Shown piece by piece: positions 2,209-35,190 of a DNA stretch of 64,000 nt (its first letter is position 1; the number at the start of each line of letters is the position of its first letter). A model generated the notes under the pieces. That model saw only the letters and a program-made list of their open reading frames with translations. It did not search any database and was not told where the DNA came from. Source of the stretch: Desulfatiglandales bacterium (lineage in GTDB: Bacteria; Desulfobacterota; DSM-4660; Desulfatiglandales; Desulfatiglandaceae); contig OY762721.1 of assembly GCA_963666345.1 (NCBI GenBank), positions 1,408,001 through 1,472,000 on the forward strand. Reading direction: 5' to 3'. The position numbers and the translations under genes are program-made.

Positions 2209-2223
2209 ATCAGCTAACCCCTT
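2190..2223 (-). terminator. hairpin terminator after the tRNA-Glu fragment
   Basis: AAGGGGTTAGC...GCTAACTCCTTTT on the minus strand. Confidence 0.65.
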
Positions 2224-2232
2224 GAAATTACT

Positions 2233-2280
2233 TGGCGTCCCCAACCGGATTCGAACCGGTGTTGCCGGCGTGAAAGGCCG
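2233..2280 (-). tRNA. tRNA-Glu(TTC) 3' half only (att site, not a complete tRNA)
   Basis: Reverse complement CGGC-CTTTCAC-GCCGG CAAC ACCGGTTCGAATCCGGT TGGGGAC G CCA gives anticodon loop, T arm, acceptor 3' strand and CCA; no D arm or acceptor 5' strand. Confidence 0.9.
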
Positions 2281-2352
2281 TATTTTTTATATTACCTTTA
2301 TTTACCTCCTGGTCTCTAGTTGTCCTTAATATATTGAAAATACATATAATAG

Positions 2353-2381
2353 TTGACAAAATTTTTTTCTTGGCTTACCAT
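2353..2381 (+). promoter_or_regulatory. sigma70-like promoter of integrase A
   Basis: TTGACA-17 bp-TACCAT, about 70 bp before the ATG. Confidence 0.6.
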
Positions 2382-2405
2382 TTTGTACCTTGATTTTCAT
2401 GTTGG

Positions 2406-2428
2406 GTGTGGGGGATAGTGTGGGGGAT
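2406..2428. repeat. GTGTGGGGGAT tandem repeat, probable arm-type site for integrase A
   Basis: gtgtgggggat-a-gtgtgggggat; a 17-bp reverse-complement match lies at 35173-35189. Confidence 0.65.
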
Positions 2429-2448
2429 GAAATTGGGGGGGCTTCCAT

Positions 2449-3612
2449 ATGCCTAAGCAAAAGCGGTATAAAACAAAATATCCGGGGGTTTATTATCTAG
2501 ACGGAACATCAATTAAAGGTAAACCTGAACGTGTCTACTATATCCGTTACCGTAAAAACGGTAAACTAGTTGAGGAACCCGCTGGACGACAATCAAAAGA
2601 TGATATGACCCCAGCAAAGGCCAATAACATAAGATCAGAAAGAATCAAAGGGCACAGGAAATCAAACCGTGAAAAACGAGAAGCACTACTGGCCGAAAAA
2701 ATTGCTAAAGACAAAAAATGGACAATTGACCGACTGTGGAACTCTTACAAAAGTATCCGGATCCCTGGCAAATCATTGAACACTGATAAAGGCCGATATG
2801 ATAAATACCTTAAAGAAAAATTTGGGAAAAGAGCTCCAGAGGAGCTGAATCCCCTAGACGTAGACCGTCTGAGAATAAGTCTATTAAAGAAATTGGCACC
2901 ACAGACCGTGAAGCACGTGTTGAATCTTTTGACTTGGATAATTAACTACGGAGTCAAAAATGGTCTTTGCAAAGGCATACCATTCCATATAAAAAAGCCC
3001 ACTGTGGATAACGTAAAAACTGAGTACCTGACAGAAAAACAGACAAAATCCCTTCTAGCGGCCATTGAGAAAGACTCCAATACTCAAGTGGCAAATTTGA
3101 TGAAATTAGCCCTTTTTACGGGCATGAGACGTGGCGAGCTACTAAATCTGCGGTGGAAAGACATTGATTTTGATCGAGGCTTTATCACACTCAAAGATAC
3201 AAAGGGTGGAAAAGATCAAACAATCCCCATGAATGATACTACAAGACATATTTTGGATTCTCATCCGAAGGGGGACGGGGTTTATGTTTTTCCAGGGAGA
3301 TCGGGCGGAAAACGCGCTACAGTTGATGTGGCTGTCAATAAGATAAAGAAAGCTGCGGGTCTTCCCAAGGACTTCAGGCCCCTTCATGGCCTCAGACATG
3401 CTTATGCCAGTATGCTGGCTTCTAGCGGCAAAGTGGATATGTACACCCTTCAAAGGCTCTTAACTCATAAGGATCCTCGTATGACCCAAAGGTATGCTTT
3501 CCTTCGCGATGAGGCTTTAAAGAGGGCCTCCGGCTTGGCCGGGGATATAATTAACAACATGATCAAGGAAAATGATAAGAAGGTCTCTGATTTGAAAAAA
3601 GTGAGTACTTGA
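2449..3612 (+). CDS. tyrosine recombinase/integrase A
   Basis: TGMRRGEL, HGLRHAYAS and LTHKDPRMTQRY catalytic boxes; adjacent to the tRNA att fragment. Confidence 0.95.
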   Translation: MPKQKRYKTKYPGVYYLDGTSIKGKPERVYYIRYRKNGKLVEEPAGRQSKDDMTPAKANNIRSERIKGHRKSNREKREALLAEKIAKDKKWTIDRLWNSYKSIRIPGKSLNTDKGRYDKYLKEKFGKRAPEELNPLDVDRLRISLLKKLAPQTVKHVLNLLTWIINYGVKNGLCKGIPFHIKKPTVDNVKTEYLTEKQTKSLLAAIEKDSNTQVANLMKLALFTGMRRGELLNLRWKDIDFDRGFITLKDTKGGKDQTIPMNDTTRHILDSHPKGDGVYVFPGRSGGKRATVDVAVNKIKKAAGLPKDFRPLHGLRHAYASMLASSGKVDMYTLQRLLTHKDPRMTQRYAFLRDEALKRASGLAGDIINNMIKENDKKVSDLKKVST

Positions 3613-3803
3613 AGCAGCCTTAAGCAAAATAGAAGTCACTCATTTAATGAAGTTTATCTTTAAGCCTTATCTCGTAGCATTTATGTGTGTTACACCCAAC
3701 TGTTCTTGATCCTCCGACACCCTGCTCCCAAAGCTAGTAAATATAAATATTTATGATCCCTATACCCGTGACTGGCGGTGTGATTTCTAAAAAATGTCTT
3801 TCA

Positions 3804-6800
3804 TTACATATTTGGTTTTCGATCTTCAAAAGATTTTATTTTAATTTGTGAGTAAGGTTGAAAATGCATTGATTTTATTAAAGCGATTCCACTTTCCTGA
3901 CACATAATTATATCTTTAACGCTTTTTTGTTCCTTTTTGTTCGTAGTAAATTGCTTTGCGATTACACCGGCGTCAGCCTCTTCCAATGCGAGAACAATTT
4001 GGGTTCCAGCATTGGCAAAAATCGAGGGATGAAAATCCCTGGTTTCCTGTGAAGAGAGAATGAGCCCCATTCCGTATTTTCTGGCTTCTTTTACCAGGTC
4101 CGTGATCTTGGGATCATTGCAGAGTTTATGAGCCTCATCGATACAGACCATGACCCGCAGGTCCTTGGACATACCCTGAATGAGCATAGAAGAATAGATT
4201 TTTTCGAGCAGGAACCTGGATGCCGCCAACATCAGATCCTTAATCCCTGCGGTAAGCAGAATAACGGTGGTTTTCGTGAAAATGTCCTCAAAGCTGTATT
4301 GCGCTCTTCCCTGTTCAAATATCCCGCTTTCAAAAAGAGGCTGAAGCCGCACCTGGAGGTTACGAATCTGCCCGCCGGTTTCTTTTGACCAGCGATCCAA
4401 GATTTCCGAGAGCATCTCCAAGGTAGGGGGATTGCGATCATCTGGGGCCGGTTGATTCATCTCAAAGCCGGCATGCACATAGCACTCCTTTATTGCTTCG
4501 CGCAGTTTGCCAAGTTGGATATCTCCTGATCCGGAAAAGACTGAATTTAGCGTATCGGCAAGTCGGAACATCATTTCAACAGGCCTGCGCTTTTTTCCTG
4601 TTCTGGGATCGACGGGTATTTCAAAAGGATTGATGGGGAGCCCATCCATGACATCAAAAATCTGTGGCTTTACGGATTCATGAAAGTCCTCGGAGGCGTA
4701 TTCGCCTTGGAAATCGAGGATTATGGAGGGCACTTCTTGCCGATTCAGTTCGAAAAGCATGCTCTTCGTAGTTTCTGATTTTCCCGCACCGCTTTTGCCT
4801 ACAATCAAAAGGTGTTGATTGAGGAGGCGCTTGGGCTTTGTGGTTTTTGGGTCCCAATAGGCTTCTTTTCTTGAGGTGGTATCCACCCCAAGATAGACTT
4901 TTATCTCATCGTGTTTTTCCGGAATTTGTTCCGCCTTCTGTCTTGATGAAGCTTTCGTGGGTGGTGTGTCCTCAACTGGTTGGATTACTTCGTCTGGTAG
5001 CGGTTCCGGGACAGGAGACACCTGTGGTTGCTCTTCGGGGGGCTGATCTGTTGTTCCCGTCACTTCTTCGCCTGGTGTCTCTTCCCCTTCTGGTGACTCG
5101 GGACGCGATACTTTCTCAGATTTTTCCACTGATTCAGGCACTGGGGCAGAGGGAGAGGGCTCTTCCGTTCCGCCATTCGGTTCATCCGGTTCATCAAACC
5201 CATTATCCTCATCTATTGGAACATCCAGAAGGCTGGAAATAGCCCCACGTCCAAAAATCTTGATAATGTTCCCGTGAACCTCTTTTTCATCGATTTGCCC
5301 CCAGCTCGCACCATTGAAGATGTATCCTTCATGCCGGAATTGCACTTCACACGAGCCTGCGGCCGCAGCTTCAAGACCTTTCATGAATCCTGTAATGAGG
5401 TCTGTTTGCTGTTCCTCGGTTAGGTCCATCATAAATAGGCCATATCGGTGTGCACGCTCAAAATAGAAGAGGAGTATATTGGCCCATTCCTTGTTTTTAA
5501 TGGTGGCATCAAAACGAGCATTTCCGCCTCCCAAGTAATGATGCCGGAAATGCTGTTCCGTGCTCTTGTTTTTGTCCCGGATTTCTTCCTGCAATTGGTA
5601 AATCTGGGCCGGGCTAGAAGCTTTTCGATTCTTAACCTCGATGAGATCAACCTCAATCCTTCGGTCATTAAGTTTTACGAGCATCAGGTCGGTACGCTTG
5701 AGGGAAAGTTCTGAATTTTCCAATTCTTTCGGGGTCTGGTAAAAAAGCTCAATATGGCTGTCCACTGGAATGAGGACACGACCAGAAAGCCTTCCTTCAC
5801 GCTCCAGAGACAGGCGTGTTAGAGCCAGGCCAATCACTTCCTGGGCTTGGCTGGGGTTGTTGATGAGTTTCAATGCCAGTTTGCCGGAAACGGATTTGAG
5901 CATCTGGAGGACATAAGCTACCTTGGCTGTATCTATTACTTCGCCCACTGAGTCAGGGTCGTCTACAAGCAGGTCAATGAAGCCGGCCCTTAGGATGCTC
6001 TCAATTTCATGCTGGTGGAATGTGGAAATGACAAGCCTGTGGGCAACGGCATCCAAAAACTCCGGGGAATAATCAATCAAGTAACCGCTGTTTCCTGCAC
6101 CCGGTCCCTTGATAGGATCATCATAAAATTCTATTCCGAAATTCCGGTCAATAGTGAAAACCCAGTCAGAAGCTTGATGCACCTTGTCTAGCATACGCAG
6201 GTGGTTTTTTCCGTGCTCGTCGGTGAGCTCCAATTGAACAGTGATATATTTGTTCAAGGAGTTGGACCAGTCAAAAAAGCAGGCCGAAAAATGCGCCGCA
6301 AAATCCTGCCCTTGAAAGAGGCGAGCCGTATTCCCATCCGAAGCCAGGTCAGCGCAAGAGTTTGGAGCTATCATGCGGGACCAAGTTGCGGTGGTAGCTC
6401 CAGCATTATAGTCCGTCACATATTCGGTCAGCAAGTTGTTGAGAAAGGAACTGCCTCTGCTTCCCGTATGCTCGCGAGTGGAAACGGTGGTGCCGAAAAA
6501 GTCTATGACAAAGGTCAGGTGCGATTCGAACCTTCCCTCCTGGTCATCCAAAAGCTCCTCAATGGCGTGTTTTGCGTAGATCAGTTTGGGAAACAGAGGG
6601 TTCTCATTGGGGCTGAGAAGCAGTTCCTCGGTTTCGGACAGTTTCCTGCCAAACGTCCAGTCCTCACTGCTTTTTTGCAGGATGAACTCATCTAGGGCAT
6701 TTCCAATGAGCTGGTGTCGGGTACCCCGGGGAGCGAAAAATTTGATATCGAAATTGAGATTCTTGTAGAGATCCTTTGCAAGAAGAAGCTTGACTGCTTC

Positions 6801-9137
6801 AAGGATGAGGCCGCCATCTCCCGGGTTCACCACGTTCAATTTCATCGTCTGGACATAGGGATGATGGCAGAGGTAGCGCTCCATCTTATCGGCGATCTGC
6901 CGGGGTGTAACCGTTGATATGATGCCGTTTGCGGTCCCGGCCCCAAGAACCTGCATGGCTGCGTTCACAGCGGTGCGGAGATCCGGAGATTCCGAGTTGG
7001 GGTAGAACCCCCAAAAAAGCCCAAAATTGTCCGTGTTGACATAGGCTTCGGATTTTTTGGGGGAGATTGCGCTTGGGATATTCAGGGATGTCAATTTGTC
7101 CAATACATCTTCTTCTATGCACTGTTTGATTTCAGTGGGATTGAGCCCCTTCATCCGCCCGATCCACCCCCGAACCAATGTCTGATATTGAAAAAGCCAT
7201 AAGACCCGAAGAGGATGCGTCGGGGCTAGCAGGAGTACCTTCATTGGGCTCTCGCTAGGGCCAACCCGCATCAGCATCGTGTCGATTCTGTTCAGAAGAG
7301 AATAATCGTGGAGCAAGGTGTTGATTGCGCTCATTCCTTGGGCCGATTCCACCCGTTCTTTGAGCGCTTCCATCAGCTCCAGATACTTATCGATGTACTC
7401 GATGACCTCTTCCTCGAGTTCGTGGAGATCAACGACCTCAATAACACCCCTGCCATCGGCTTTGTCCCGAACAGAGATGAAAAACTTCTCACGAGCCTGG
7501 TAAAAGGCATCGGTAAGTTGGTTGACAGCGCTGGAAAGCCCTACGGGCTTGAAATCGTCGGCCTTGGCGCTCCTTTGATTGACTAGGTTGGCGTCATAGA
7601 TACCCAGAGTATTGGGATTTTCCAGGATTTTTCTTTCAAGGTCACGCAATACCGGGTTCAGGATAAGGTCGCCCCTGCGGTTGTTTGTCAACCGCACGGC
7701 ATACACGTAATCCCGCTTCAAATCCCATCCTTGGCTCCTGATCCCATACTCCTTGCCGGTTTGGTACATGACGTTGAACGGCAATTCGTCCAGGTGGCGG
7801 ATGCGTTGCCCCCTTTCGGTGGGCTGATCTTCAAAATCCTCCCCCTTTTCAATCCAGAATTGTTCACTTTCATCATTGGCATCCTGGATGGGCATCCCTG
7901 ATTTGGAGAGGCATTGAATGCGGATAGTGGCAACGCATTTTTCATCATCATCTAGGTTGTTGTCCGATATTGACACGGAAAAGGATTTTCGCTTGGCAGG
8001 TACGTATTGAGGCGGAATGACATCCATCTCGCCTTGGTCTTGGGTTTGGCGGACAACTGTCACTAGGTATCTACCCAGGTCAGGTGCCTGTGGAGGGCTT
8101 ACCTTCCAACTGATTCGAATGGGTTTTTTCCCGTCGCTGGTGAGTTCCCCTCCCTTGAGTGTCAAACCGCTAGCCACCTTTTCAGGTTTTTTAGGGTCTT
8201 GAAGCGGTTTCAACTCAATCCGAACACCTGAAATGGGCTGGGCGAACTTCCATTCATCAAAAGAAAGATTGGCCCGAATGCTTTCCTCGTGGCAGATGGG
8301 CGGGAGCCATGTTTTGGTACGAAGCAAGTTCTTGTCCGCCAAATAGGCCATCAACTCCTTGTGCCTTTCTTCATCAGCAAGCTCAGCCTCTACAATTAGG
8401 CGATGCAAATTTTGTCCCAGGCTCTTTTCTCCCTCTGTGAGGATCTCCATGCAAAGGCTGTTACGGGCCAGTTGAACGGAATAGATGTCCTGGTTCAAAC
8501 CAAAATCAGGAACCAGGTCCATCTCATACAGATAGGCCCCCGCTGTTTCCCAGGTTACGGATTGCTGGCTTTGTTCCTTTTGCCCTAAGATGGCCAGAAT
8601 AAAACGCACACGGTTCTGTACCGGCCTTCTTCGGATATCCACGTGGTAGAGAATGGCCTTGAGGATTTCTGCCTCTTGAGAGGGCAGTAGGTTTACCATG
8701 CCAATGAGGTGTCGCTCCAGGCAATTGGCCGCATCAAAGCTCTCTTCGTCATCGGTTTTGAATGTAGCCACATTTAGGGAATCTTCCTCGGCCAAACGCA
8801 GGCCGGAGGGGAACAGGGCACAAAAAACCTTGATGATGTCATAGGTAGAATCCTCGCGCAGTTTCACAGCGCCACTGCCACTAACCTCCCATGGTTCCGG
8901 GGTCTCTGATTTATCGGTTACGACCCTGCAGACGATCTTCTGGTTCTTAAGTTCCTGATCCTCGGAAAGGCTTTTGCCCAGCCCTTCCATAACAGGTCGG
9001 GGAAGAAAATCTAGCCGCTGGCAATGGCCTTGACCCTTTTGCAACAGAAAGGTCTTTAAGGTTTCGTAAAGGGCTTTTACGTATTCCGAATGGAGAATCG
9101 CGTCGTCCAGTTTATAAAGCGAAATTGCCGTCGCCAT
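3804..9137 (-). CDS. DptH/MAD8-like large protein: PD-(D/E)XK-like nuclease motif plus C-terminal HerA/DUF87-type ATPase
   Basis: 1777 aa; Walker A GKSGAGKS, Walker B CIDEAH, KEARKYG and SSQ motifs; RTDLMLV...DLIEVK nuclease-like motif; acidic Pro-rich linker before the ATPase. Confidence 0.75.
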   Translation of the reverse strand: MATAISLYKLDDAILHSEYVKALYETLKTFLLQKGQGHCQRLDFLPRPVMEGLGKSLSEDQELKNQKIVCRVVTDKSETPEPWEVSGSGAVKLREDSTYDIIKVFCALFPSGLRLAEEDSLNVATFKTDDEESFDAANCLERHLIGMVNLLPSQEAEILKAILYHVDIRRRPVQNRVRFILAILGQKEQSQQSVTWETAGAYLYEMDLVPDFGLNQDIYSVQLARNSLCMEILTEGEKSLGQNLHRLIVEAELADEERHKELMAYLADKNLLRTKTWLPPICHEESIRANLSFDEWKFAQPISGVRIELKPLQDPKKPEKVASGLTLKGGELTSDGKKPIRISWKVSPPQAPDLGRYLVTVVRQTQDQGEMDVIPPQYVPAKRKSFSVSISDNNLDDDEKCVATIRIQCLSKSGMPIQDANDESEQFWIEKGEDFEDQPTERGQRIRHLDELPFNVMYQTGKEYGIRSQGWDLKRDYVYAVRLTNNRRGDLILNPVLRDLERKILENPNTLGIYDANLVNQRSAKADDFKPVGLSSAVNQLTDAFYQAREKFFISVRDKADGRGVIEVVDLHELEEEVIEYIDKYLELMEALKERVESAQGMSAINTLLHDYSLLNRIDTMLMRVGPSESPMKVLLLAPTHPLRVLWLFQYQTLVRGWIGRMKGLNPTEIKQCIEEDVLDKLTSLNIPSAISPKKSEAYVNTDNFGLFWGFYPNSESPDLRTAVNAAMQVLGAGTANGIISTVTPRQIADKMERYLCHHPYVQTMKLNVVNPGDGGLILEAVKLLLAKDLYKNLNFDIKFFAPRGTRHQLIGNALDEFILQKSSEDWTFGRKLSETEELLLSPNENPLFPKLIYAKHAIEELLDDQEGRFESHLTFVIDFFGTTVSTREHTGSRGSSFLNNLLTEYVTDYNAGATTATWSRMIAPNSCADLASDGNTARLFQGQDFAAHFSACFFDWSNSLNKYITVQLELTDEHGKNHLRMLDKVHQASDWVFTIDRNFGIEFYDDPIKGPGAGNSGYLIDYSPEFLDAVAHRLVISTFHQHEIESILRAGFIDLLVDDPDSVGEVIDTAKVAYVLQMLKSVSGKLALKLINNPSQAQEVIGLALTRLSLEREGRLSGRVLIPVDSHIELFYQTPKELENSELSLKRTDLMLVKLNDRRIEVDLIEVKNRKASSPAQIYQLQEEIRDKNKSTEQHFRHHYLGGGNARFDATIKNKEWANILLFYFERAHRYGLFMMDLTEEQQTDLITGFMKGLEAAAAGSCEVQFRHEGYIFNGASWGQIDEKEVHGNIIKIFGRGAISSLLDVPIDEDNGFDEPDEPNGGTEEPSPSAPVPESVEKSEKVSRPESPEGEETPGEEVTGTTDQPPEEQPQVSPVPEPLPDEVIQPVEDTPPTKASSRQKAEQIPEKHDEIKVYLGVDTTSRKEAYWDPKTTKPKRLLNQHLLIVGKSGAGKSETTKSMLFELNRQEVPSIILDFQGEYASEDFHESVKPQIFDVMDGLPINPFEIPVDPRTGKKRRPVEMMFRLADTLNSVFSGSGDIQLGKLREAIKECYVHAGFEMNQPAPDDRNPPTLEMLSEILDRWSKETGGQIRNLQVRLQPLFESGIFEQGRAQYSFEDIFTKTTVILLTAGIKDLMLAASRFLLEKIYSSMLIQGMSKDLRVMVCIDEAHKLCNDPKITDLVKEARKYGMGLILSSQETRDFHPSIFANAGTQIVLALEEADAGVIAKQFTTNKKEQKSVKDIIMCQESGIALIKSMHFQPYSQIKIKSFEDRKPNM

Positions 9138-9140
9138 GAA

Positions 9141-10643
9141 TCAGTATTCCTCTCCCCAGGTTTTCTCAATTACTTCTCTGCCATCATTAATGGCCTTCAT
9201 GAATAGATTATGAGATCTGTTTTCTAATTCCTTTGCTTCTGCTCTTTTATTAAATGCACTGACAACAATATTATGAATTTGCTTACCATTATCTTTTGGC
9301 AATTTAATAGCGATTGATTCAAATTGAAAAGCTCTCAATCTTTTTTGAACTGAGCCATAAGATAATTTTTCCAATTGAATTTGACCGTACGGAGACGAAA
9401 GGAATGCATATAAAAAGCCTGAGTAAATCTTCCTATTATTCGGTATTAACCTCATAACATCCTGAGTCATAATCCAGCCCTCAAAATTTTTATATACGAA
9501 AAGCGTTCTACCAACTGTCCCACCAGAGCTAACCAATACCCATCCTCTTTTAACTCTTTCATTGTCAATATTCTTAGTCTTTGCAATTGAAATATAACTC
9601 AGGTTATTTTGTTGCATTTGGCACAAGCTCTTTCCACCTAGAAGAGGAACTCCATTTTCGTCTTCTTCAACATAAACTCTTTTTCTAAGGTTAGAGTCAA
9701 AAACATCTTCCAGTAGAAGGCCTAATTTTGCCCCCTCCTTTTGACGCAGAAGGTAATCCTGCAAGGCGCTTGATATGGGCTCATGGAAATTTGTGTCAAC
9801 CCTCAATTCGCCAAAATTTTCAACACTGCCAATCCTATTTCCAAAATTGACTGAAAATATCTCAGCATCAGTTTCTGCCTTTTCATCATAAGAAGACTTA
9901 AATCCTTCAATATCTGGTAAATTAAGTTGGGCTTGGACCTCCTGCTCCGCGTCATCCAAAAGTCGGTTGGCCTCCACGCGCAGATCACTGGTTTTTTTTA
10001 CCAAGCGGGTTAGCTCTTCACGAAGCCGAAGAGGGAGCTTTGGAATGGGAAGCGGACCGACATCCTGTTCATAAATATGCGAAACTACTGATCCAGATTG
10101 GCTTCTTTTCAATAAAAATTGTCCTGGAGGGCTTTGAAAAAGACAGTATAATGTCCCTATCTGGTCAGTAAATTTGGCCCTAACTCTGAGAGCATCAACT
10201 GTGACTGCCCAGTTATCCATCCTTTCATCAACTATTCTTATATTACCAACACTCCCTGACATGGAAATTAAAATCATGTCTTTTTTTACAATAAAAAAAT
10301 CGACATTTTTTGTTCGTGATTTTGATAAATAAAGATTGGGCGTAGGCCTAATCTCCATCATACCGGAGGTATTCAGATAGGGTATTCCCAGTTCTGGATC
10401 TTTTACAAAAACCCTTGTTTGAACGCCATACCATTTAACATCTGCAAAATCATTTATTGTCTTTATCTGAAATCCTGACTGTCGCATTGCCTGCACTGAG
10501 CGGTATCCCTCAGATGCGTAAAATCCCGCCTCCATACGGTGCGGAGGAGAGTAAATCGCTCCACTGTTCAACGCATAGGTTTCGGCCCGGCATCGATTCC
10601 GGACAGACTCATGCGGCCAGTACATCGCTGGTTCAGCTCCCAT
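9141..10643 (-). CDS. restriction-modification specificity subunit (HsdS/MAD5-like, two TRDs)
   Basis: Two TRD-like repeats (DMILISMSGSVG; WVLVSSGGTVG...YAFLSSPYGQIQL..GSVQ) separated by a helical spacer. ATG 10643 with GGAGG RBS overlapping the MTase stop is preferred over 10790. Confidence 0.8.
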   Translation of the reverse strand: MGAEPAMYWPHESVRNRCRAETYALNSGAIYSPPHRMEAGFYASEGYRSVQAMRQSGFQIKTINDFADVKWYGVQTRVFVKDPELGIPYLNTSGMMEIRPTPNLYLSKSRTKNVDFFIVKKDMILISMSGSVGNIRIVDERMDNWAVTVDALRVRAKFTDQIGTLYCLFQSPPGQFLLKRSQSGSVVSHIYEQDVGPLPIPKLPLRLREELTRLVKKTSDLRVEANRLLDDAEQEVQAQLNLPDIEGFKSSYDEKAETDAEIFSVNFGNRIGSVENFGELRVDTNFHEPISSALQDYLLRQKEGAKLGLLLEDVFDSNLRKRVYVEEDENGVPLLGGKSLCQMQQNNLSYISIAKTKNIDNERVKRGWVLVSSGGTVGRTLFVYKNFEGWIMTQDVMRLIPNNRKIYSGFLYAFLSSPYGQIQLEKLSYGSVQKRLRAFQFESIAIKLPKDNGKQIHNIVVSAFNKRAEAKELENRSHNLFMKAINDGREVIEKTWGEEY

Positions 10644-12792: not shown

Positions 12793-12802
12793 ATATCCTC
12801 GT

Positions 12803-14563: not shown

Positions 14564-14574
14564 TGAACTCTCCT

Positions 14575-20044: not shown

Positions 20045-20072
20045 GACTGCCTCCTTTCAAAAATTGAAGATC

Positions 20073-21755: not shown

Positions 21756-22192
21756 GCCTTTGCGGTCACTGGGTGAGGCGAGGGTCCTTTCCTTTGGGGA
21801 TTCACAAAGTGACAGGTATTCTGTATCGCCAAATCCCCGTTTGACTCAGGAAGGCCAACAATGCATAGACGCTGGCGATCCTCAGCCTGCATTGATGGAT
21901 GTCGAAGGGCCAGTACCCGGGTAAGGTCTAGAGTTCAGTTGATATGGTCAGCTTATGCGAACGCCTACAGGCGTCGGGAGTACTTATGAGCCCAAACGTG
22001 CAGGAAGGCTGACCATAATCGTAGGTGCCCATGTTGCGTGTATCCCACCGTGCCCGCAGAGAAATGACTCACCATCGTCCGAGCCCTGTGTGGCCGGGGC
22101 CGTAATGCTACGCAAGTGCTTACCCGTAGCGACGTATTTTATTATATGATGCATTTCCGCGGATTTTTTTCAAAAAAATAGGGGGTAGGCAC

Positions 22193-23272: not shown

Positions 23273-23529
23273 GTGAGCCGTAGTGAAACATATACGCCTA
23301 ATAGTAGGACGAAACGACTACGGTTATGACCCATTAATAGTCTGTTGCAGATCAAAAATCTATTCTCGAATGCAGCTTTCGTGGTCGAGCCACTTCAGTT
23401 CCACGATGTCTGCCACGGAGAGCTTGATCTCTCCAGCGTCTTGCATGCGCACAGGGATAGGATCTTCCGACTTCAAAGTCTCGGCATCGATCAACCATCA
23501 GCTAATATCCTCTTATTGGATCTTGAGAT

Positions 23530-24996: not shown

Positions 24997-26180
24997 CTCG
25001 GTTATCTCCAAGAAACGGTGATAGATATCATGGGAACCGGCATGGCGACCATGCCGTTCTGTTGGCCAATCGGTTTGCTGCAAGGCTGTTGGCCATAGCT
25101 GACCGAGCGGCTTTTGATGCGGCTGTGGACGAATTGGTTAGAGAAATGGATGGGCTTAGTTTTGCAGAGCATGACAGAGCTGTGAACGTTCTTTGGAATG
25201 GGCTCGGACAAAGGGCATCTACATTAGAACTCCCTGTCAACTCTGACCGACCGACTGCCCTCTTCTTCTGTACGAGTCGGACTACGGATCTGGACATCAG
25301 GGTGAAGGAAGAGGTCATTACCCAGGTTGAGCCCGTCAAATGTTTCGTCGGCGGGAAGGCATGCAATGCGTTCCGCATGTACCGAAATATCGGTGGAGAG
25401 GCGGTGTTATTGACTTACCCTGATCTAGCGTTTGATGCACGTAAGGTCGTTCTCCTAGATCATGCAAAGAAAAGAGTCCTATATGCTGACCCTCTGCCAT
25501 CGACGGACAGCGACCCGTGGGACGTGTTAAACACTGTGTCGGCTTGCCTTAATCGCATGCCGAGAGGGAGCCTTATTGTTATTGGGGGCTCTTTTCATCC
25601 TGCCCTTGCAGCTGAACACCTTGATTACTTCTTTGATTCTGCTCGTTCTGATGAGTTCGGACTCGTTGTTGATTGCAGCGCCAAATTGACCGAGGTACAG
25701 GTTATCAAAATACTCGAAGCTAAACCACTTGTCCTCCAGAGCAACGAAGCCGAGTTCAGAATGCTGTGTCGGTATGTAAACATAGACGGGATGAGAGAGC
25801 GCCAGAGCTTGAATCATTTCCCGGACATATCACAGGTGGTACGTATAGCGCAGGAACTGATCAAAAGCTTTGGCCTTTCGGCGATTGCTGTTACCCTGCG
25901 TCAGAGAGGCGCTGTATTGTGTACAAGGAACGAGATCCACTACGGCCATAGTCGTTGGCCTATTGCCTCTGTCGCTGGAGGACTTGGATCTGGCGATTCA
26001 TTCTGTGGGGCCATGGCTTACGCTCTCTCACAAGAGCCCGCAGTGAACAGGGAGATCAATTGGCGTCGAGTTCTAAATTTCTCTCTTGCTGCTGCGACGG
26101 CCAAGGTAAAGCTGTTGGGGACCCAGATGCCATCACGCGATTTAGTGTTGCAAGAAGAGGTAATCATGTGCAGCCAATAG
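24963..26180 (+). CDS. PfkB family carbohydrate kinase (divergent)
   Basis: GGKACNA, VVDCS, SNEAE, VTLRQRGA, GSGDSFCG; true start may be the GTG near 24993. Confidence 0.75.
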   Translation: MALPFREVVGVTRLSPRNGDRYHGNRHGDHAVLLANRFAARLLAIADRAAFDAAVDELVREMDGLSFAEHDRAVNVLWNGLGQRASTLELPVNSDRPTALFFCTSRTTDLDIRVKEEVITQVEPVKCFVGGKACNAFRMYRNIGGEAVLLTYPDLAFDARKVVLLDHAKKRVLYADPLPSTDSDPWDVLNTVSACLNRMPRGSLIVIGGSFHPALAAEHLDYFFDSARSDEFGLVVDCSAKLTEVQVIKILEAKPLVLQSNEAEFRMLCRYVNIDGMRERQSLNHFPDISQVVRIAQELIKSFGLSAIAVTLRQRGAVLCTRNEIHYGHSRWPIASVAGGLGSGDSFCGAMAYALSQEPAVNREINWRRVLNFSLAAATAKVKLLGTQMPSRDLVLQEEVIMCSQ

Positions 26181-26296
26181 CCCCGACTATCATGCACTAT
26201 CGAGAGAGCGCGCCCACACCGGGATCTCTCTGGACAGACTGCTAACAGGAAAACTATAAGTGAATTGGATATGCAAAAGACCGGTGGACCATTACA

Positions 26297-27499
26297 TTGA
26301 CGAAGGAAACGGCTGTGGCATCCAACGCGAACATCGGCTTGAGAATTGGCGGTACAAACTTGCAGGTAGCCGTACTATATGGCGATGAAGTACTTCGGGT
26401 GGTTTCCGATGAGATCAGGTTTCGCGATGTCTGCGAAGCCCGAGCTGGAGGAAGCTATGTCCGGAGTGATATGTATGAGTTGGTGGCAAATCAGGTGCTT
26501 GATTGTATTACCCGGATAGGTCTGAGTGTGCCCCAGTTTATAAAGGACAACGGGGGATTTCGGATACTTGTGTCCTTTGCAGGGCCAATGTCCCTAGATG
26601 GACATCTAGTTTTCCGGCCGAAAAGCATTCCTTGTATGCATACATGGTTCCCTCTAGCCGAGGAGCTTTCGGAGCATCTTTGCTGTGCATTAAACTGCAG
26701 CCGTGAGACTGCTAGTGTACAGACTTGGATGGACGGAACGACATCGGTCTTCGCGGAGACCTCACCTAATGGAACCTGTCCTGGAGAAAGGGATGCGATG
26801 GTAGTGATATCGGGCACCGGTGTGGGGGCTGGTTTTATGAAGGACGGGAAGAGCTTCGTCGGTCAGGGAATCAACGGAATGCTTGGAGAAATTGGCTACT
26901 TCCTGATGACGACAAGTAATGGCCAGTATAAGTATATGGCCTATGAGACACATGGCGACATCGGGAGGTTCATTTCTGGCAAACCCCTTAATGTATTCAG
27001 ACACAGATTCTGTGTTGAAGGAGTTCTCAAGTCATTCATCGAGTATACGGAACGACGGGGCGATGGACGGCCGATTGCGGGGCTCAAGGGCTGGGCATGC
27101 CGTGGGCGGATGTCGCATGCCACCCTAGTCCGTTTGTCGCAAGAACTCATCGACCGGATCGCTAATGGCGACAGAATCGCTCTGAGTTTCCTAGATGACT
27201 TAGCGGACGGATTCTGCAGCGGAATCGCTTCATTCGTTGTTCATCCAAGACACATTGGAGAAAAATTCACACGGAACATCGTCCTGGTCGGCAGTCTGAG
27301 CTGTTTTTTGGGGGTATTCTCCTCGCCTCTTGAAAGTAGAATGAGGGAAGCGCTTTACAGAAAGTTGTGCGAGGCGTGCGTTTCGCGACGAATTGCTTCT
27401 GAAATTTGCGAGGGATTCCGGTTCTCAAAGATGAGCTCTACCACTCGGGAGTTCATCGGTTTGGCGAGGCTCGGGAGGATGAAATGCACAGCCGTGTAG
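26297..27499 (+). CDS. ROK family sugar kinase-like protein (divergent)
   Basis: GLRIGGTN, VSFAGP, GTGVGAG, GEIGY. Confidence 0.75.
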   Translation: MTKETAVASNANIGLRIGGTNLQVAVLYGDEVLRVVSDEIRFRDVCEARAGGSYVRSDMYELVANQVLDCITRIGLSVPQFIKDNGGFRILVSFAGPMSLDGHLVFRPKSIPCMHTWFPLAEELSEHLCCALNCSRETASVQTWMDGTTSVFAETSPNGTCPGERDAMVVISGTGVGAGFMKDGKSFVGQGINGMLGEIGYFLMTTSNGQYKYMAYETHGDIGRFISGKPLNVFRHRFCVEGVLKSFIEYTERRGDGRPIAGLKGWACRGRMSHATLVRLSQELIDRIANGDRIALSFLDDLADGFCSGIASFVVHPRHIGEKFTRNIVLVGSLSCFLGVFSSPLESRMREALYRKLCEACVSRRIASEICEGFRFSKMSSTTREFIGLARLGRMKCTAV

Positions 27500-27642
27500 C
27501 TCAGGGCACATGCAGAGTGGTTCCCAGGTGTCCGGGAGTCAGGTTGAATGAAGCTCGCTAGGGACGCAGTTTTGGCCCATGGCATCTTGCAACAGAATTT
27601 TATCCATGAGGTGATTCCATTAAGTAGGGGGTCCTTAAAGAT

Positions 27643-29040
27643 ATGGATATTCAACTCGTACTTCCAAAACATGATGCTGGCGAAGGTGTGACAACGCAGG
27701 CATGTTTCCCTCCTCTGGGGATTCTGTCCATCGCCTCCCACTTGCGTGCCCTTTATCCGACGTTTGACATTGAGGTGATTGATTGTGAGCTTGTGAATGG
27801 GGATATAGAAAATCTTATCGGGGCAGACATTGTGGGTATTCACAGCTCCTTTCTGACCCACGAGCATGCAATCGATATCGCTAAACATGCCAAGCAACGC
27901 GGGGCCACCGTTGTGTTAGGTGGACCACACCCTTCGGCCGTCCCTAACGCTATTCTCCGCAATAGGCGTTTTGTAGATGCTATAGTTGTTGGTGATGGGG
28001 AGTTGGCTTTCGCCGATCTAGCGGCCGGAGTTGACTATCTAAAAATTCCGAATCTCGTCTTCAGAGAAGGAGAGAATATTGTCCAAAATCCGGTGCTCGA
28101 ACTTTCTGTTGACGAGTGGGTACCAATTGACTTTTCTTTTGTGGATCTTACCGCATATTGGCGGAACTGGGAGCAGAATTTTCCCGAGCAGATCTACTTT
28201 AAGCCACTTCCTTTTTTCTCCCAGCGAGGCTGTCGATGGCGTTCTTCAGTAGGAGCTTGTGTGTTTTGCTCTATCTATGATGTTACTGTGAGAGGCGTGA
28301 CTCCCAGTTCGTTTTGGGCGGAAGTCCAAAGGCTAAACACGGAATGGGGGAGTGATTATGCCCGGGACAACTCCGACGATCGAGCTGCTGACCGCAAATG
28401 GTTATCGGAAGCATGCTCTATGCGTCCTAGAGGCCTAGATGTCGGACTCCGGTTTTATTGTCGTGCGAGTTCGATAGACGCAGAGACGACCCAGATGCTT
28501 CGTGAGATGAACACCGTTGACGTCTTCGTGGGTTTCGAGTCGGGGGATACTCGCATACTCAGACAAGCAAACAAGGGGGGATCAAGGGAGGGTAACATTC
28601 GGGCGGCCAATTTGCTCCACGAAAACGGGATAAACGTTCTGGGCAGCTTCATCCTCGGTTTGCCGGGAGAAGACGATCAAAGCATACAAGCCACGGTTGA
28701 CCTAATCAGTGAAGTCAGGGCTCGGGCAGGCGTCAGGAGACCTAGTTGCACTATCATGATTCCCTTCCCAGGCTCACCAGCATTCGGGATGATGCTGACT
28801 CAACCCGATCTGAGAGAGAAGTACCAGAACAGAGATCTGATCAACTGTGAGGATCTCCGGCGAGACTGGGTGTGCAGGTTCACTCAGACTGACTATGAAG
28901 TGCTACTCAGCGTGGCTGACGATCTTTTCTGCTCGGGCATGGTAGGCTCAAGAATTGGGTTTGGCCCAGGCGTCAACAGAACAGAACCCGAGGACATAGA
29001 GGCTAATCCTTCCGGTTTAGGACCGGACGCTGATGGTTAA
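27643..29040 (+). CDS. B12-binding domain radical SAM enzyme (class B methyltransferase-like)
   Basis: PPLGILSIAS, VVLGGPHPS, GDGE, RGC-X8-CVFC, GFESG, FILGLPGE. Confidence 0.9.
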   Translation: MDIQLVLPKHDAGEGVTTQACFPPLGILSIASHLRALYPTFDIEVIDCELVNGDIENLIGADIVGIHSSFLTHEHAIDIAKHAKQRGATVVLGGPHPSAVPNAILRNRRFVDAIVVGDGELAFADLAAGVDYLKIPNLVFREGENIVQNPVLELSVDEWVPIDFSFVDLTAYWRNWEQNFPEQIYFKPLPFFSQRGCRWRSSVGACVFCSIYDVTVRGVTPSSFWAEVQRLNTEWGSDYARDNSDDRAADRKWLSEACSMRPRGLDVGLRFYCRASSIDAETTQMLREMNTVDVFVGFESGDTRILRQANKGGSREGNIRAANLLHENGINVLGSFILGLPGEDDQSIQATVDLISEVRARAGVRRPSCTIMIPFPGSPAFGMMLTQPDLREKYQNRDLINCEDLRRDWVCRFTQTDYEVLLSVADDLFCSGMVGSRIGFGPGVNRTEPEDIEANPSGLGPDADG

Positions 29041-30872: not shown

Positions 30873-32717
30873 TTATTCGTCTGGATATACCTTCAGGTTG
30901 ATACCTTTAAAAATCCGTTTTCCATTGGTAGTTCTCACCCGGCCAACCGCAGGAAACGACCTCATGATCTGATTATAGAACCTGTTACGGCTCATAATGC
31001 TATACTGACCCTCTTTGCACCAGTCCTGATATGACTTCCACATCTCTTTAGGAGCGACTTGCTCATCCTCCCCTAGATCGCAGCACTCCTGAATAAACTG
31101 CTGGAAAGGGTACATGGCCAGGATCAATCTCTTTTTAGCCTTGTTCACCTCTTCCAGCTCCTCAAAGCCGTCATTTTCCAGCAGCTTCATCAGCCCGTCC
31201 AGGGCCCACATAAAAACGCCGTCAAGCTCATTTTCTATGATCTTCTTTGCCAGGGTATGGTCCTGCTCATCCTCTGCGAACTGTCTCAGAAACTCTATGA
31301 CAATAAGCCTGCGGGCAAAACCGTGGCTTTTGTCCAGCACCACAGGCGGCTCGTTCAAGGAGAAAATGTTTTTGGCGAAATTCCGGAACATATAGGCGTC
31401 ACCGTACTTGCGCTCAGCACTCACCAGATCGCCGCTTACAAGCTTTTTAAAGGTAGAGGTACCCATGGCTTCCCTAGTCGTCTCAGCTGCCAGGTTGGCA
31501 AATTTATTCTCCATGGCATAGGTCCTGAATCTCTCTCCAAGCTCGTGCATACTAAGAGCACTCACGTTCTCCTCCCCCAGCATCCCAGTCAAAACATCGA
31601 TCACGACTGATTTACCATTAGCGCCGCCTCCTATCAGCCAGAGCGCCTTTGCGTACCTGCAGTCGGTCAAAAGGCAATACCCGAAAAACTGCTGAAGCAC
31701 ATCGATTTTTCCTTTTTCGTTTCTGCCTGGGAATACCTCATCAAGAAATTTCAGCCATCTGTCGAGCTTTTTGAAATACTTCACTCCGAAGATACATGGT
31801 ATTTGAGCCTTTGCTCCATATTTAGCGTCATGAGAGATGAGCGCATTTTTGCGATCCTCGGCATCCACATTCACCATGCCATTTTTGCAACATATCAGCT
31901 CAGGGTTACTGCCCCAGTCGTCAACGTGCCTTTCAACCAAGCCCTTCAGAGTGCTTATTGATGTCACTATCCAGCTCGGGGTCAGGTAATCGCCCAAGGC
32001 ATGGACTATTATCGAGGCTATCTGATCCTCGCTGATCTCCTGCCAGATCCCCTTGGGCGTATACGCCCAAAAAACCCCGTGTGTGTGTACCAAGTCGCCT
32101 ATCAGGCCCACGATGTATTTCGCCATGAGCGAGGCAAGGAATTTTCTTTTTGATTTAATCCGGATGAAGAATTCTGCTGGATTTATCTCATCAGGCGGCG
32201 GGAGTTTGTCGCTGAACAGTGCGGTCAAAGCCGGGCTCATATTGTACTCACCCACACTCTCTATAAGACCGGTGGATACGTTCTCCACGGCTGGCGGCTT
32301 CCACTCAGGATCGTAGCCAGAACAAAACGGAGCAAGCGAATCATCTCCCGAGATCACCACCCGGGCATCTTTCCAGGTGCGGCCGGCAGCTTTGCATGTG
32401 TCGTGAAAGCATTGATAGGTCAGGTAAGGCTGGCTGGAAGACTGGACGATTGAGGCATCATTAGGCCCATGAGAGTGATCAAATACGCACTCTTTGAGAC
32501 AATATAGAGTCAACTCGCCTTGCGGCTTCACAAAATGTTCGCGTCCATAGTGATTTAGATAAGCACCCACATCCAGGGTGCCCAGGTTGCCCCGGTTCAT
32601 CGGCTTGGCTTTCCCGGTGTTCTTTTTTTGGGAAGTCGAGGAAGGGGCGGGGAGCTGGGCCTCGCCTTCTGCCGCCTCATCAGCCAGCTTTGATGGAATT
32701 TTCTTTTTATCAGGCAT
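30873..32717 (-). CDS. phage/plasmid primase-helicase, P4/D5 family
   Basis: LICCKNGMV (D5_N), QQFFGYCL, GGGANGKS Walker A, FKKLVSGD...ERKY, RRLIVIEF (SF3 helicase), C-terminal wHTH. Confidence 0.92.
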   Translation of the reverse strand: MPDKKKIPSKLADEAAEGEAQLPAPSSTSQKKNTGKAKPMNRGNLGTLDVGAYLNHYGREHFVKPQGELTLYCLKECVFDHSHGPNDASIVQSSSQPYLTYQCFHDTCKAAGRTWKDARVVISGDDSLAPFCSGYDPEWKPPAVENVSTGLIESVGEYNMSPALTALFSDKLPPPDEINPAEFFIRIKSKRKFLASLMAKYIVGLIGDLVHTHGVFWAYTPKGIWQEISEDQIASIIVHALGDYLTPSWIVTSISTLKGLVERHVDDWGSNPELICCKNGMVNVDAEDRKNALISHDAKYGAKAQIPCIFGVKYFKKLDRWLKFLDEVFPGRNEKGKIDVLQQFFGYCLLTDCRYAKALWLIGGGANGKSVVIDVLTGMLGEENVSALSMHELGERFRTYAMENKFANLAAETTREAMGTSTFKKLVSGDLVSAERKYGDAYMFRNFAKNIFSLNEPPVVLDKSHGFARRLIVIEFLRQFAEDEQDHTLAKKIIENELDGVFMWALDGLMKLLENDGFEELEEVNKAKKRLILAMYPFQQFIQECCDLGEDEQVAPKEMWKSYQDWCKEGQYSIMSRNRFYNQIMRSFPAVGRVRTTNGKRIFKGINLKVYPDE

Positions 32718-32737: not shown

Positions 32738-32917
32738 TTACTCAGGCCTGATTTTATGCCGGTCCATGAAGCGAATGACGTCGTCGACATCGTATCTGAC
32801 GGCTTTACCCGCTTTACAATATGGGATTCCGACCCCTTTAAATCGGTCATTCCTTAATTTTGAGCAGGAAAACCCCGTAATTGCAGCTACTTGTTTTTCG
32901 TTAATGTACTTTTTCAT
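32738..32917 (-). CDS. excisionase/AlpA-like HTH protein (59 aa, below the ORF-track cutoff)
   Basis: MKKYINEKQVAAITGFSCSKLRNDRFKGVGIPYCKAGKAVRYDVDDVIRFMDRHKIRPE*. Confidence 0.85.
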   Translation of the reverse strand: MKKYINEKQVAAITGFSCSKLRNDRFKGVGIPYCKAGKAVRYDVDDVIRFMDRHKIRPE

Positions 32918-33030: not shown

Positions 33031-33089
33031 GCTTGAAAAGTGCTGGAGAAGGCAGGGGAAAAAATACAGGGATGAATGTATGACTGTTC

Positions 33090-33734
33090 TTATTGTTCTT
33101 TTTTAGGCGCTCCTGGGCCTTTCCCTTTTGCTATTCCTTTTATCCATCTAATGGGGGTATTATACGAGTAAGGACCATGATGTATGACATCCTGTATCTC
33201 CGGCCTTTTTATTAGTTGAGCCTTGGGTATATCAGGCTCTAGTGCTACTATTTTCCTGGCTGCCTCTTGCACCCTTAACATGTCATTATAGCCGCTTCTT
33301 CCGCTCACTGCTTTTGGTACAGCGGGTTCTACACTCTCATCATAGAGAGTCCAGTATCTCTGTTCATCAATTATAATTGGTAATTCATTTATGGATCGAA
33401 TACAGGAAAACTCCCATTCCTCCTGAAAATTAAAGGAAGGGCTAGTCCTGTAAACGCATGTAAAACTGTCTCCTAAAAAACTATTATTGCCACTGTGGGC
33501 ATATTCGAAGATCAGAAGTGATTGATACCTCATGAATTTGTCTTCAGGCATATTTTCAGGCAATTTGAACATTACTAAATATTTGCATCTTGGAAAGGAT
33601 TTCTTCATAGCGTCATCGACACAAGCAAAAAGCCTAATCCATTCTGCTTCCTGAATTTGGTAGGTCCAGGCATAAGCAAATGAAATGAGGCGGTCATGAA
33701 CAAGTTCCGGGAAATAATCAGCCTGATATTTCAT
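33090..33734 (-). CDS. hypothetical protein overlapping the integrase B stop; possible C-terminal HTH
   Basis: ATG 33734 after a GGGGG RBS; occupies the int-regulator-xis position typical of satellites. Confidence 0.55.
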   Translation of the reverse strand: MKYQADYFPELVHDRLISFAYAWTYQIQEAEWIRLFACVDDAMKKSFPRCKYLVMFKLPENMPEDKFMRYQSLLIFEYAHSGNNSFLGDSFTCVYRTSPSFNFQEEWEFSCIRSINELPIIIDEQRYWTLYDESVEPAVPKAVSGRSGYNDMLRVQEAARKIVALEPDIPKAQLIKRPEIQDVIHHGPYSYNTPIRWIKGIAKGKGPGAPKKEQ

Positions 33735-34893
33735 GTTCCAAGCCCCCTGTTTTCGATTGGTCCTGCTTGTTTTTCCCTTCATCTGCTTTTTTGATGATAT
33801 CTGATGCCAGATCGGAGGCGCCCTTTAAGGCAGCATCCCTTAAATGAACGTACCTCTGCGTCATCCTGGGGTCCTTGTGTGTCAAAAGCCTCTGAAGGGT
33901 ATACATATCGACCTTGCCGCTTGAGGCGAGCATCGAGGCATACACATGTCTCAATCCATGTATGGGTCTGAAGTCTTCGGGAAGTCCGGCGGCTTCTTTT
34001 ATCCTGTTTGCGGATACCGTTACTGTGGCCCTTTTACTGCCGAATCTTCCGGGGAAGACGTATAGGCTTTTTTCCCTTGGGTGGTGTTTAAGAACTCCTC
34101 TTGCACCTTCATTCAATGGGATAATCTGATCTCGTCCGCCCTTGGGATCCCTTATGTTTAAAAACCCCCGTTCAAAATCTATATCCTCCCATCTGAGATT
34201 GAAAAGCTCCCCCTTCCGCATGCCGGTATAGAGTGCAAGCCTCATGAGGTTTCCCGTTTGGATATCCTTGTCCTCTTCAATGGCCAAAAGGAGTTTTTCC
34301 AGTTGGCTTTGACTAAGGTCTTCGGTTTTGATGTTGTTGACGGTGGGTTTCTGGATATGAAAACCAATCCCCTCGCAGAGTCCCTTCTTCACCCCGAAAT
34401 TTATGATCCAGGTAAGGAGGTTGAGCACATGCTTCACAGTTTGTGGAGAGCGTTTCTTGAGGAGATTTATCCTCAGCCTGTCGATTTCAAGGGGTATAAG
34501 CTCTGAGGGTTCTTTGTTTCCGAATGGCTTTTTGAGGTATCTGTTGTATCTGCTTTTGTCTGTTGAAAGGGATTTGTTAGCTGGTCGCGTTTTTTCGTAT
34601 TCCTCATAGAGCCTTTTGATGGTCCACTTTCCCTGTTCACGCGCCTTTCTTTCTTCCTCAATCTCCCGCAGCTCTTTCCGGGAGGGCTTCTTGCCTTCGA
34701 TTCTAGCGGATCGGTAGCTTGAGGCCCTGGCAGGGGTCATGGCGTCGGAATACTGCCTGCCAGCCTTTTCTTCAATGGTCTTCCCGTTTTTTTTGAAGAC
34801 GACGTAATAGACCTTCTCTGTGCCTTTACGGCCTATCCGTTTTGCCTCTCTGTAAAAGACTCCCGGATAACTTGTTTTAAACCTTGCCGCCAT
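33718..34893 (-). CDS. tyrosine recombinase/integrase B, close paralogue of integrase A
   Basis: TGMRKGEL, HGLRHVYAS, LTHKDPRMTQRY; long identical blocks with integrase A (PQTVKHVLNLLTWIIN; ASSGKVDMYTLQRLLTHKDPRMTQRY). Confidence 0.95.
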   Translation of the reverse strand: MAARFKTSYPGVFYREAKRIGRKGTEKVYYVVFKKNGKTIEEKAGRQYSDAMTPARASSYRSARIEGKKPSRKELREIEEERKAREQGKWTIKRLYEEYEKTRPANKSLSTDKSRYNRYLKKPFGNKEPSELIPLEIDRLRINLLKKRSPQTVKHVLNLLTWIINFGVKKGLCEGIGFHIQKPTVNNIKTEDLSQSQLEKLLLAIEEDKDIQTGNLMRLALYTGMRKGELFNLRWEDIDFERGFLNIRDPKGGRDQIIPLNEGARGVLKHHPREKSLYVFPGRFGSKRATVTVSANRIKEAAGLPEDFRPIHGLRHVYASMLASSGKVDMYTLQRLLTHKDPRMTQRYVHLRDAALKGASDLASDIIKKADEGKNKQDQSKTGGLEHEISG

Positions 34894-34929
34894 GGTGTCT
34901 CCACCGGCTCCGTAAGCCGGTCACATTAT

Positions 34930-34950
34930 TTTCCAACCCCATTTCCAACC
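34930..34950. repeat. TTTCCAACC direct repeat, probable arm-type site for integrase B
   Basis: tttccaacc-cca-tttccaacc, in the same position relative to intB as the GTGTGGGGGAT repeat is to intA. Confidence 0.55.
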
Positions 34951-35066
34951 TCCAGGATAGATTATAATGAAAAGTGGTGGATGTCAATGGAAACAACAAC
35001 TATTTGATTATACTTTGTAATACTAAATAATGGATTATAATGGATTTTGGAGAAAAATATAAAAAT

Positions 35067-35114
35067 CGGCCTTTCACGCCGGCAACACCGGTTCGAATCC
35101 GGTTGGGGACGCCA
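35067..35114 (+). tRNA. tRNA-Glu(TTC) 3' half only (att site)
   Basis: CGGCCTTTCACGCCGGCAACACCGGTTCGAATCCGGTTGGGGACGCCA, the exact reverse complement of 2233-2280; 5' half absent. Confidence 0.9.
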
Positions 35115-35123
35115 AGTAATTTC

Positions 35124-35156
35124 AAGGGGTTGCGAGTAATTTTGCAACCCTTTTTT
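35124..35156 (+). terminator. hairpin terminator after the tRNA fragment
   Basis: AAGGGGTTGC...GCAACCCTTTTTT. Confidence 0.7.
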
Positions 35157-35172
35157 ATTTTCTGATTTACAG

Positions 35173-35190
35173 TCCCCCACACTATCCCCA
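35173..35190. repeat. second copy of the integrase-A-type arm site
   Basis: TCCCCCACACTATCCCC is the reverse complement of 2411-2427. Confidence 0.65.

Follow-up and report, generated by a model that had tools for sequence, protein, structure and literature searches.

A likely rearranged stack of tRNA-Glu islands with three identical attachment cores and two intact integrases in a Desulfatiglandales bacterium

Three identical tRNA-Glu cores and two facing integrases

We analysed a 64,000-nucleotide stretch of the genome of a Desulfatiglandales bacterium (GenBank assembly GCA_963666345.1, contig OY762721.1, positions 1,408,001 to 1,472,000 of the forward strand), referred to below as the window, which holds two tyrosine integrase genes, intA and intB, and two partial copies of a tRNA-Glu gene. 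Positions are those of the window unless prefixed C1. A sequence-only reading of this DNA had proposed that an inverted pair of tRNA-Glu attachment (att) cores and two facing paralogous integrases bound a potentially invertible 33-kb island. The pair is present as described: the two cores are a 65-bp exact match in inverted orientation, and IntA and IntB, which are 63% identical, are encoded by genes that face each other; both proteins carry the catalytic motifs of tyrosine recombinases and neither gene has an internal stop. The genes run in the order intA, a MADS/DndFGH-like operon, a DUF932 gene with a HigA antitoxin gene, a radical SAM cluster, a P4-family primase gene, a gene for a helix-turn-helix (HTH) protein, and intB (Table 1).

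The 65-bp core consists of the final 48 nt of tRNA-Glu(TTC), which begin in the anticodon stem and end with CCA, and a further 17 nt; its 7-nt loop is flanked by short inverted repeats. The absence of an intact tRNA-Glu at either end was borne out, since ARAGORN finds 0 tRNA genes in the window. The intact tRNA-Glu(TTC) gene, which the earlier reading had proposed to locate, lies 29.4 kb to the left of the window (C1:1378606-1378683, + strand) and contains a third core. We refer to this core as J1 and to those of the window as J2 and J3; their sequences are identical at 65/65 positions. J1 and J3 are direct repeats with an outer span of 64,496 bp (about 64.5 kb) and one intact tRNA gene, whereas J2 is inverted relative to both. 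J2 thus divides the unit into segment X (J1-J2, 31.5 kb) and segment S (J2-J3, 32.8 kb).

Three elements, A, B and C, meet at these cores. Read in the direction of the tRNA, J1 (+) joins the tRNA to the left end of B (B-left), J2 (-) joins A-right to C-left, and J3 (+) joins B-right to A-left. A hairpin followed by a T-run, resembling a terminator, heads every downstream half behind the cores. Element C is represented by intC, the 3' remnant of a third integrase gene. A search of 200 genomes returned two intC homologues, each of which immediately follows an intact tRNA-Glu in convergent orientation, and C-left therefore appears to be the tRNA-proximal end of a third type of element. Element B contains an int - HTH (AlpA/Xis-like) - P4-family primase module, in which the primase scores above its cut-off and the HTH protein below. 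A 37% identical homologue of this candidate directionality factor follows an integrase in another locus (L099). A perfect 28-bp inverted repeat lies upstream of the HTH gene (32974-33030), and an iteron-like inverted pair downstream of the primase gene (30550-30671).

Table 1. Features of the locus, with the basis of each assignment. Positions are window coordinates except where prefixed C1.
Feature	Position	Strand	Remark
B-type motif, left arm	C1:1378740		40 bp after J1
Right end of segment X (31.5 kb, iron/metal-uptake and Fe-S genes)	1..1651	.	Continues left, out of the window, to J1
amtB-like 3' remnant	1652..1818	-	95% identical to 3' end of open reading frame C1:1143127-1144458; back-to-back fusion with intC remnant, rearrangement scar
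intC, 3' remnant of third tyrosine integrase	1819..2208	+	Homologue comparison
GTACAC n6 GTACAC direct-repeat motif	2165..2182	-	Putative left arm of element C; 34 bp from core like other arms
Hairpin and T-run behind J2, terminator-like	2185..2215	-	Sequence
Core J2	2216..2280	-	A-right|C-left junction, putative attR of IntA; inverted relative to J1 and J3
A-type motif, putative right arm	2411..2427	-	Unique motif search and homologue survey
intA, intact tyrosine integrase, 387 aa	2449..3612	+	R, K, HxxR, H, Y motifs present
MADS/DndFGH-like five-gene defence operon, cargo	3804..16419	-	Matches to Mad2, Mad5, SspF-like, Mad7, DndH/Mad8-like
~100-bp repeat, 1 of 3 related, same orientation	18840..18957	.	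Others at 20447-20569 and 29549-29644
Frameshifted DUF932 gene and HigA antitoxin	19081..20366	-	Assembly deviates here from contigs of run X4
ThuA / radical SAM / PfkB / ROK / B12 radical SAM cluster, cargo	21147..29040	+	Domain matches
P4-family (D5) primase-helicase of element B	30873..32717	-	Score above cut-off
59-aa HTH protein, candidate excisionase/AlpA (recombination directionality factor)	32738..32917	-	HTH_17 match 19.8 bits, below cut-off 27; putative role
intB, intact tyrosine integrase, 391 aa	33718..34893	-	Catalytic motifs, no internal stop
B-type motif, putative right arm	34930..34950	+	Unique motif search and homologue survey
Core J3	35067..35131	+	B-right|A-left junction; putative attR of IntB and attL of IntA
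A-type motif, putative left arm	35173..35189	+	Unique motif search
Island-like genes behind A-left: AAA_27 ATPase and phosphoesterase, AAA_14-DUF4143, TatD-like, PDC-M19-like pair	35302..44893	.	Possibly left part of A

Putative arm motifs pair the cores with their integrases

The A-type motif TCCCCCACACTATCCCC occurs in the 4.16-Mb genome, which is a single contig, only at the two positions of Table 1, against a chance expectation of 0.0004; the intA arm-like motif had been correctly placed inside the left core and outside the right one. Similarly, the B-type motif TTTCCAACCCyATTTCCAACC is found genome-wide only behind J1 and 117 bp before J3. We surveyed 42 loci for such motifs and dropped 10 (4 without an integrase, 2 from the genome under study, 2 duplicates and 2 without an N-terminus); related loci among the remainder are not independent. 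Among 13 homologues whose N-terminus is IntB-like, 11 have the B motif upstream, against 0 of 19 whose N-terminus is IntA-like (10/12 and 0/18 when the two loci fetched by the motif itself, L108 and L111, are left aside); an A-like motif accompanies 8 of these 19. In canonical elements of the same family (L045, L051 and G003:C2), the motif next to the start of the integrase is repeated behind the tRNA in the same direction, inside both ends. By sequence comparison, these motifs behave as putative arm sites and track the integrase N-terminus. We note that this integrase family enters tRNA-Glu, -Asp, -Cys and -Met genes at the anticodon stem (L116-L138 and L045-L052), and that the arm-motif classes follow the N-terminal domain there as well.

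Because the A motif pairs J2 with J3, these cores would serve IntA as attR and attL, inverted to each other; J1 and J3 have the B motif on their inner sides and would be ordinary attL and attR of IntB. The J1-J3 unit has the features of an island, namely direct repeats of the 3' part of the tRNA gene, one intact tRNA gene, an intact IntB beside the att site and arm motifs inside both ends. Recombination between J2 and J3 is predicted to flip the intervening segment and to rebuild an attP of IntA (attP_A) at the right end, as the sequence-only reading had supposed. Its inverted IntA att pair therefore stands, and its 33-kb island does not. Segment X ends in two left arms (B-left and C-left) and segment S in two right arms (A-right and B-right); having no left arm, S unites the right halves of A and B within the 64.5-kb J1/J3 stretch and is not a self-contained element.

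The same arrangement bears on the idea of a dedicated invertible 33-kb island that would vary the phase of its defence or metabolic cargo. Such an island would have the inverted identical cores, the cognate intact integrase and a strand bias opposite to that of the flanks (see below), but it would not be expected to consist of two right arms with no left arm. The hairpin and T-run at each downstream half also predict that a flip moves no promoter to a new gene (promoters were not scanned), and models of tyrosine-type invertases score 21-37 bits against cut-offs of 221-222. We regard this explanation as very unlikely.

Probable origin and predicted recombination states

Taken in sequence, the junctions form the chain of chimeric junctions of a tandem array (tRNA|B, B|A, A|C). 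The cores are not uniformly oriented, however, and the elements are not contiguous, J2 being inverted; the locus is that of a rearranged array. We propose, with a probability of roughly 60%, that a stack of elements B and A with the remnant of C was scrambled by two inversions that did not use att sites; at the sites left behind, excision of 64.5 kb by IntB and a flip of 32.8 kb by IntA are predicted. The sites are predicted to be leftovers that are still competent and not a phase switch built as such. A tandem array rearranged by inversion had been put forward earlier as an alternative to an inverted att pair; it holds as the likely origin of the locus, and the two are not alternatives.

The ancestral state would have been a direct tandem array, tRNA-B-A-C. 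A first inversion would have broken an amtB-like gene and intC, leaving the scar at 1818, and a second would have reversed the B-right/A-left part. Exchanges at the cores never alter the arms that end a segment, so that at least two rearrangements away from att sites are required to reach the present layout from a direct B-A-C array. The scar at 1818 could be an inversion breakpoint or a deletion; it is bridged in a contig of run X4 (record 27) and in a sediment contig (L042, below). The 5' part of intC or of the amtB-like gene was not found in S or in the DNA to the right of J3 (Z), and X, S and Z have no repeats in common besides the cores. We take the reading frame that matches the amtB-like remnant to be amtB, from its translation and a glnK-like neighbour.

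Of the six possible pairings of the core halves that we enumerated, four are linear and in the other two an X+S circle is set free; reactions of the standard types, attP x attB or attL x attR, connect all six. From the assembled state two reactions would be open, both of the excisive type, which needs a directionality factor (PMC5882170). With such a factor, IntB acting on J1 and J3 would leave a tRNA|A-left junction and release a 64.5-kb circle, while IntA acting on J2 and J3 would invert S (32.8 kb) and build attP_A. Once S is flipped, the IntB sites would themselves be inverted, so that IntB would invert X, giving a tRNA|C-left junction, without excision. The return flip of S would be integrative and factor-free, and IntA alone would tend to flip S back; the assembled orientation is consequently expected to dominate. 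As a hairpin and T-run head each downstream half, the tRNA would keep its terminator-like end in every state.

Alternative junctions in sediment contigs

We scanned metagenome contigs with 27 nt of the core and obtained three matches, L042, L043 and L044. L042 and L043 are near-identical to our locus and come from sediment, each as one assembled contig. In L043, the core connects 7,545 bp of tRNA-side chromosome (5 mismatches) with 7,235 bp of A-left DNA (2 mismatches), X and S being absent; this is the junction predicted for IntB excision. In L042, 62 bp of the tRNA side are joined to 1,412 bp of C-left DNA (1 mismatch), the junction predicted to follow inversion of X. The tRNA has thus been seen joined to all three downstream halves, B-left in our assembly, A-left in L043 and C-left in L042. 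A site without the 64.5-kb unit exists in L043, compatible both with a state before integration and with one after excision. The third match, L044, was rejected as an unrelated partial core. Viral contigs that we scanned contain no copy of these elements and only distant homologues. Behind tRNA-Glu, the DNA differed across 20 stretches from other genera, which therefore yielded no ancestral gene order.

Strand bias

Strand bias at fourfold sites favours the present gene orientation upstream (+17.3), in X (+14.3) and in the 32 kb to the right of J3 (+18.7). In S it is -27.8 (4/18 genes) and does not fit the present orientation. No value under -14 occurs in any of 981 other 32.8-kb windows, and 3804-34893 is the most negative run between 1.30 and 1.52 Mb. 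The bias supports the view that the A-right cargo now lies inverted; it is no demonstration of flipping by an integrase. Against it stands that the primase gene favours the present orientation.

Weighing the proposed rearrangement

Several observations weigh against a scrambled stack with competent sites. The intergenic skew in S is -0.051, like that of the replichore in the present orientation, and it splits into -0.016+-0.025 for 2281-29040 and -0.105+-0.032 for the B module (29041-35066). The cargo being foreign, its strand bias may reflect the donors, and the 18 genes form few blocks, in which operons are not independent. L042 and L043 fit equally well strains that never held B, or that never held A and B. 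We saw neither of the junctions expected after a flip (A-right|A-left and B-right|C-left), in read contigs that break at the 65-bp core and give no phase across it. Neither a repeat nor a split gene was found at the breakpoints of the second inversion. In run X4, contig depth is 15-16 to the left of J2 and 11.3-11.6 to the right, a weak sign, as depth is not a copy number, and the assembly and the X4 contigs disagree at 19300-20000. Exchanges at the cores keep X and S at equal dose, so that the depth step suggests sibling lineages with other island content.

The read evidence, which consists of Logan contigs for window positions 1-20000, also bears on whether the inverted layout is an assembly chimera, the true chromosome being a canonical tandem array or a mixture of strains. 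This would account for the many differences from the X4 contigs at 19300-20000, for the frameshifted DUF932 gene and for a run of 18 G at 20513; IntA, IntB and the primase have each been recorded on a single contig, and the depth step hints at a mixture of strains. A mis-join at the cores, however, would only exchange states that all retain an inverted core, and could not remove the inversion, since both ends of X are downstream halves and both ends of S are upstream halves. A canonical array would instead need mis-joins away from the cores, where X, S and Z share no repeat. In addition, one X4 contig spans 3048-19326 without a difference from the assembly, and the amtB/intC scar is bridged twice. 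We therefore hold a chimera to be distinctly improbable. The sediment runs X1-X3 cover S patchily (bins with depth 26/30, 25/30 and 14/30) and are not informative on its presence.

Relation to known systems

Scrambling of tRNA islands is recurrent. Among 13 homologous loci checked for a partner core, 3 have a direct pair, 2 an inverted pair and 8 are uninformative (G149:C19 and G089 included), so that inverted pairs make up 2 of the 5 informative cases. Both are cores at tRNA-Met(CAT) of the same integrase family: in G062 they lie 1 Mb apart on a single contig (C1:315113-315177 and 1336796-1336872), and in G003 28 kb apart (C4:204322-232645), where N gaps around the integrase piece make the orientation uncertain. 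The present locus is distinctive in having two integrases intact, together with the arm pairs cognate to them; none of the 13 loci repeats this layout.

Tandem accretion at one att site is known for integrative elements, from arrays of ICEs (integrative and conjugative elements), integrative and mobilizable elements and cis-mobilizable elements (PMC5704250, PMC13651849). As in those accounts, we find a chain of chimeric junctions at one tRNA gene, different integrases on one core and one decayed element, with complex excision expected. Our locus, however, has an inverted junction, and neither A nor B keeps its two halves contiguous; consequently, recombination at one cognate pair would lead to inversion and not to excision. 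The locus probably descends from a tandem accretion array but lacks its uniform orientation.

Islands whose tyrosine integrases enter tRNA genes at the anticodon loop belong to Williams sublocation I. J1 and J3 follow that plan, with a core from the anticodon stem and the same arm motif inside both ends, but the unit between them also holds a second integrase with an inverted attR in its interior. With intB, a small HTH gene and a P4-family primase gene in a row at the right end of B, the locus also resembles P4-like satellites and those like phage-inducible chromosomal islands; no capsid, terminase or packaging gene was seen by Pfam or PHROGs among the reading frames scanned. A length of 64.5 kb is large for packaging by a helper.

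Closer in logic are the polypartite ICEs, the bipartite tRNA-Val symbiosis ICE of Bradyrhizobium (PMC9239051, PMC9174649) and the tripartite ICE3 of Mesorhizobium (PMC5882170). These papers describe several tyrosine integrases, direct and inverted att pairs and states linked by inversion and excision, and, in Bradyrhizobium strain 195, an intermediate whose two elements lie side by side at one att site (PMC9239051, PMC9174649). As described there, those elements have a separate att pair and target for each integrase, are conjugative and are far larger. Here, by contrast, two integrases would share one core, present in three copies, at a single tRNA gene, any ordered control would be hypothetical, and Pfam finds no relaxase or type IV secretion system family among the scanned reading frames of X and S (a few short ones fell outside the scan). 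TrwB/TraG-like matches were rejected as conjugation genes, as they belong to the DndH/Mad8-like ATPase. In its predicted working the locus resembles the bipartite ICE intermediate, but with one shared core, one target and no conjugation genes among the reading frames scanned it falls outside that class.

This likeness raises the question of whether X and S form a regulated 64.5-kb unit with two integrases, a live network in which three shared cores and six junction states let an IntA flip of the 33-kb defence and replication block lock or unlock IntB excision of iron-uptake and anti-phage genes, with X inversion as the other outcome. Standard reactions link all six pairings and two of them release the X+S circle, which would carry a P4-type primase; the identity of the cores, the intactness of both integrases, the three tRNA partners seen and the strand bias of X, S and Z, which the S-flipped state fits best, all agree with such a unit. 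It is, however, without a second example among the 13 homologous loci and without a detected relaxase or secretion system, it has a single candidate directionality factor, and the depth step in X4 is a weak hint that X and S do not always travel together. We consider regulation of this kind unlikely, though well ahead of a dedicated phase switch; if it were real, the network would be a polypartite-ICE-like element in the making from one shared att core.

The rearranged stack that we favour would show that an ordinary pile of islands can, after inversions, end up with sites that are predicted to be still competent, one integrase inverting and the other excising captured iron-uptake and defence genes. 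Polypartite ICEs have been proposed to pass through a step of this kind first. Should the sites be inactive, the locus is an ordinary scar, of a sort known from other places. Each of the six states has a unique PCR junction, which makes the model directly testable, and two related tRNA-Glu integrases that share a core and differ in arm motif are a natural pair for studies of arm specificity. Literature searches, which cover subscription journals poorly, turned up neither this locus nor a network of two integrases and three cores at one tRNA gene.

Cargo and flanking genes

The genes of segment X include FeoB, DUF4198, DtxR, SufBC, CooC, FmdE and further metal-related genes. Its SufB is the sole SufB found in the genome and is 35-43% identical to matches in 17 of 24 relatives; this low identity makes it probable that X is acquired cargo. 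For the DUF2325 protein of X, the query used gave no match in 40 relatives. An IS30 remnant without a partner lies near the left end of X (C1:1379826-1379927), and leader repeats that are 84% identical stand upstream of iron-related genes at 933-1031 and C1:1405738-1405835.

In segment S, three repeats of about 100 bp bracket the DUF932-HigA and radical SAM cassettes and occur nowhere else in the genome or in the loci compared. They may be sites of cargo exchange, and they may resemble phage cos ends.

To the right of J3, the AAA_14-DUF4143 gene (40543-41712) is 86% identical to L020:16668-17801, which lies directly behind a tRNA-Glu in another genus (G016). In locus L041 of our genome (C1:1642527-1643498), a further tRNA-Glu gene, with anticodon CTC, is followed by a degenerate B-like arm motif and an integrase remnant (1643020-1643199); the same locus holds pieces that are 83-84% identical to the region of a phosphonate-binding gene in the window (47499-48673), another island scar. 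Finally, two multi-copy, non-autonomous repeats lie at 41929-42597 and 57486-57851, with up to 56 and 15 overlapping matches in the genome, respectively, and the sediment contig L043 ends within the first of them.

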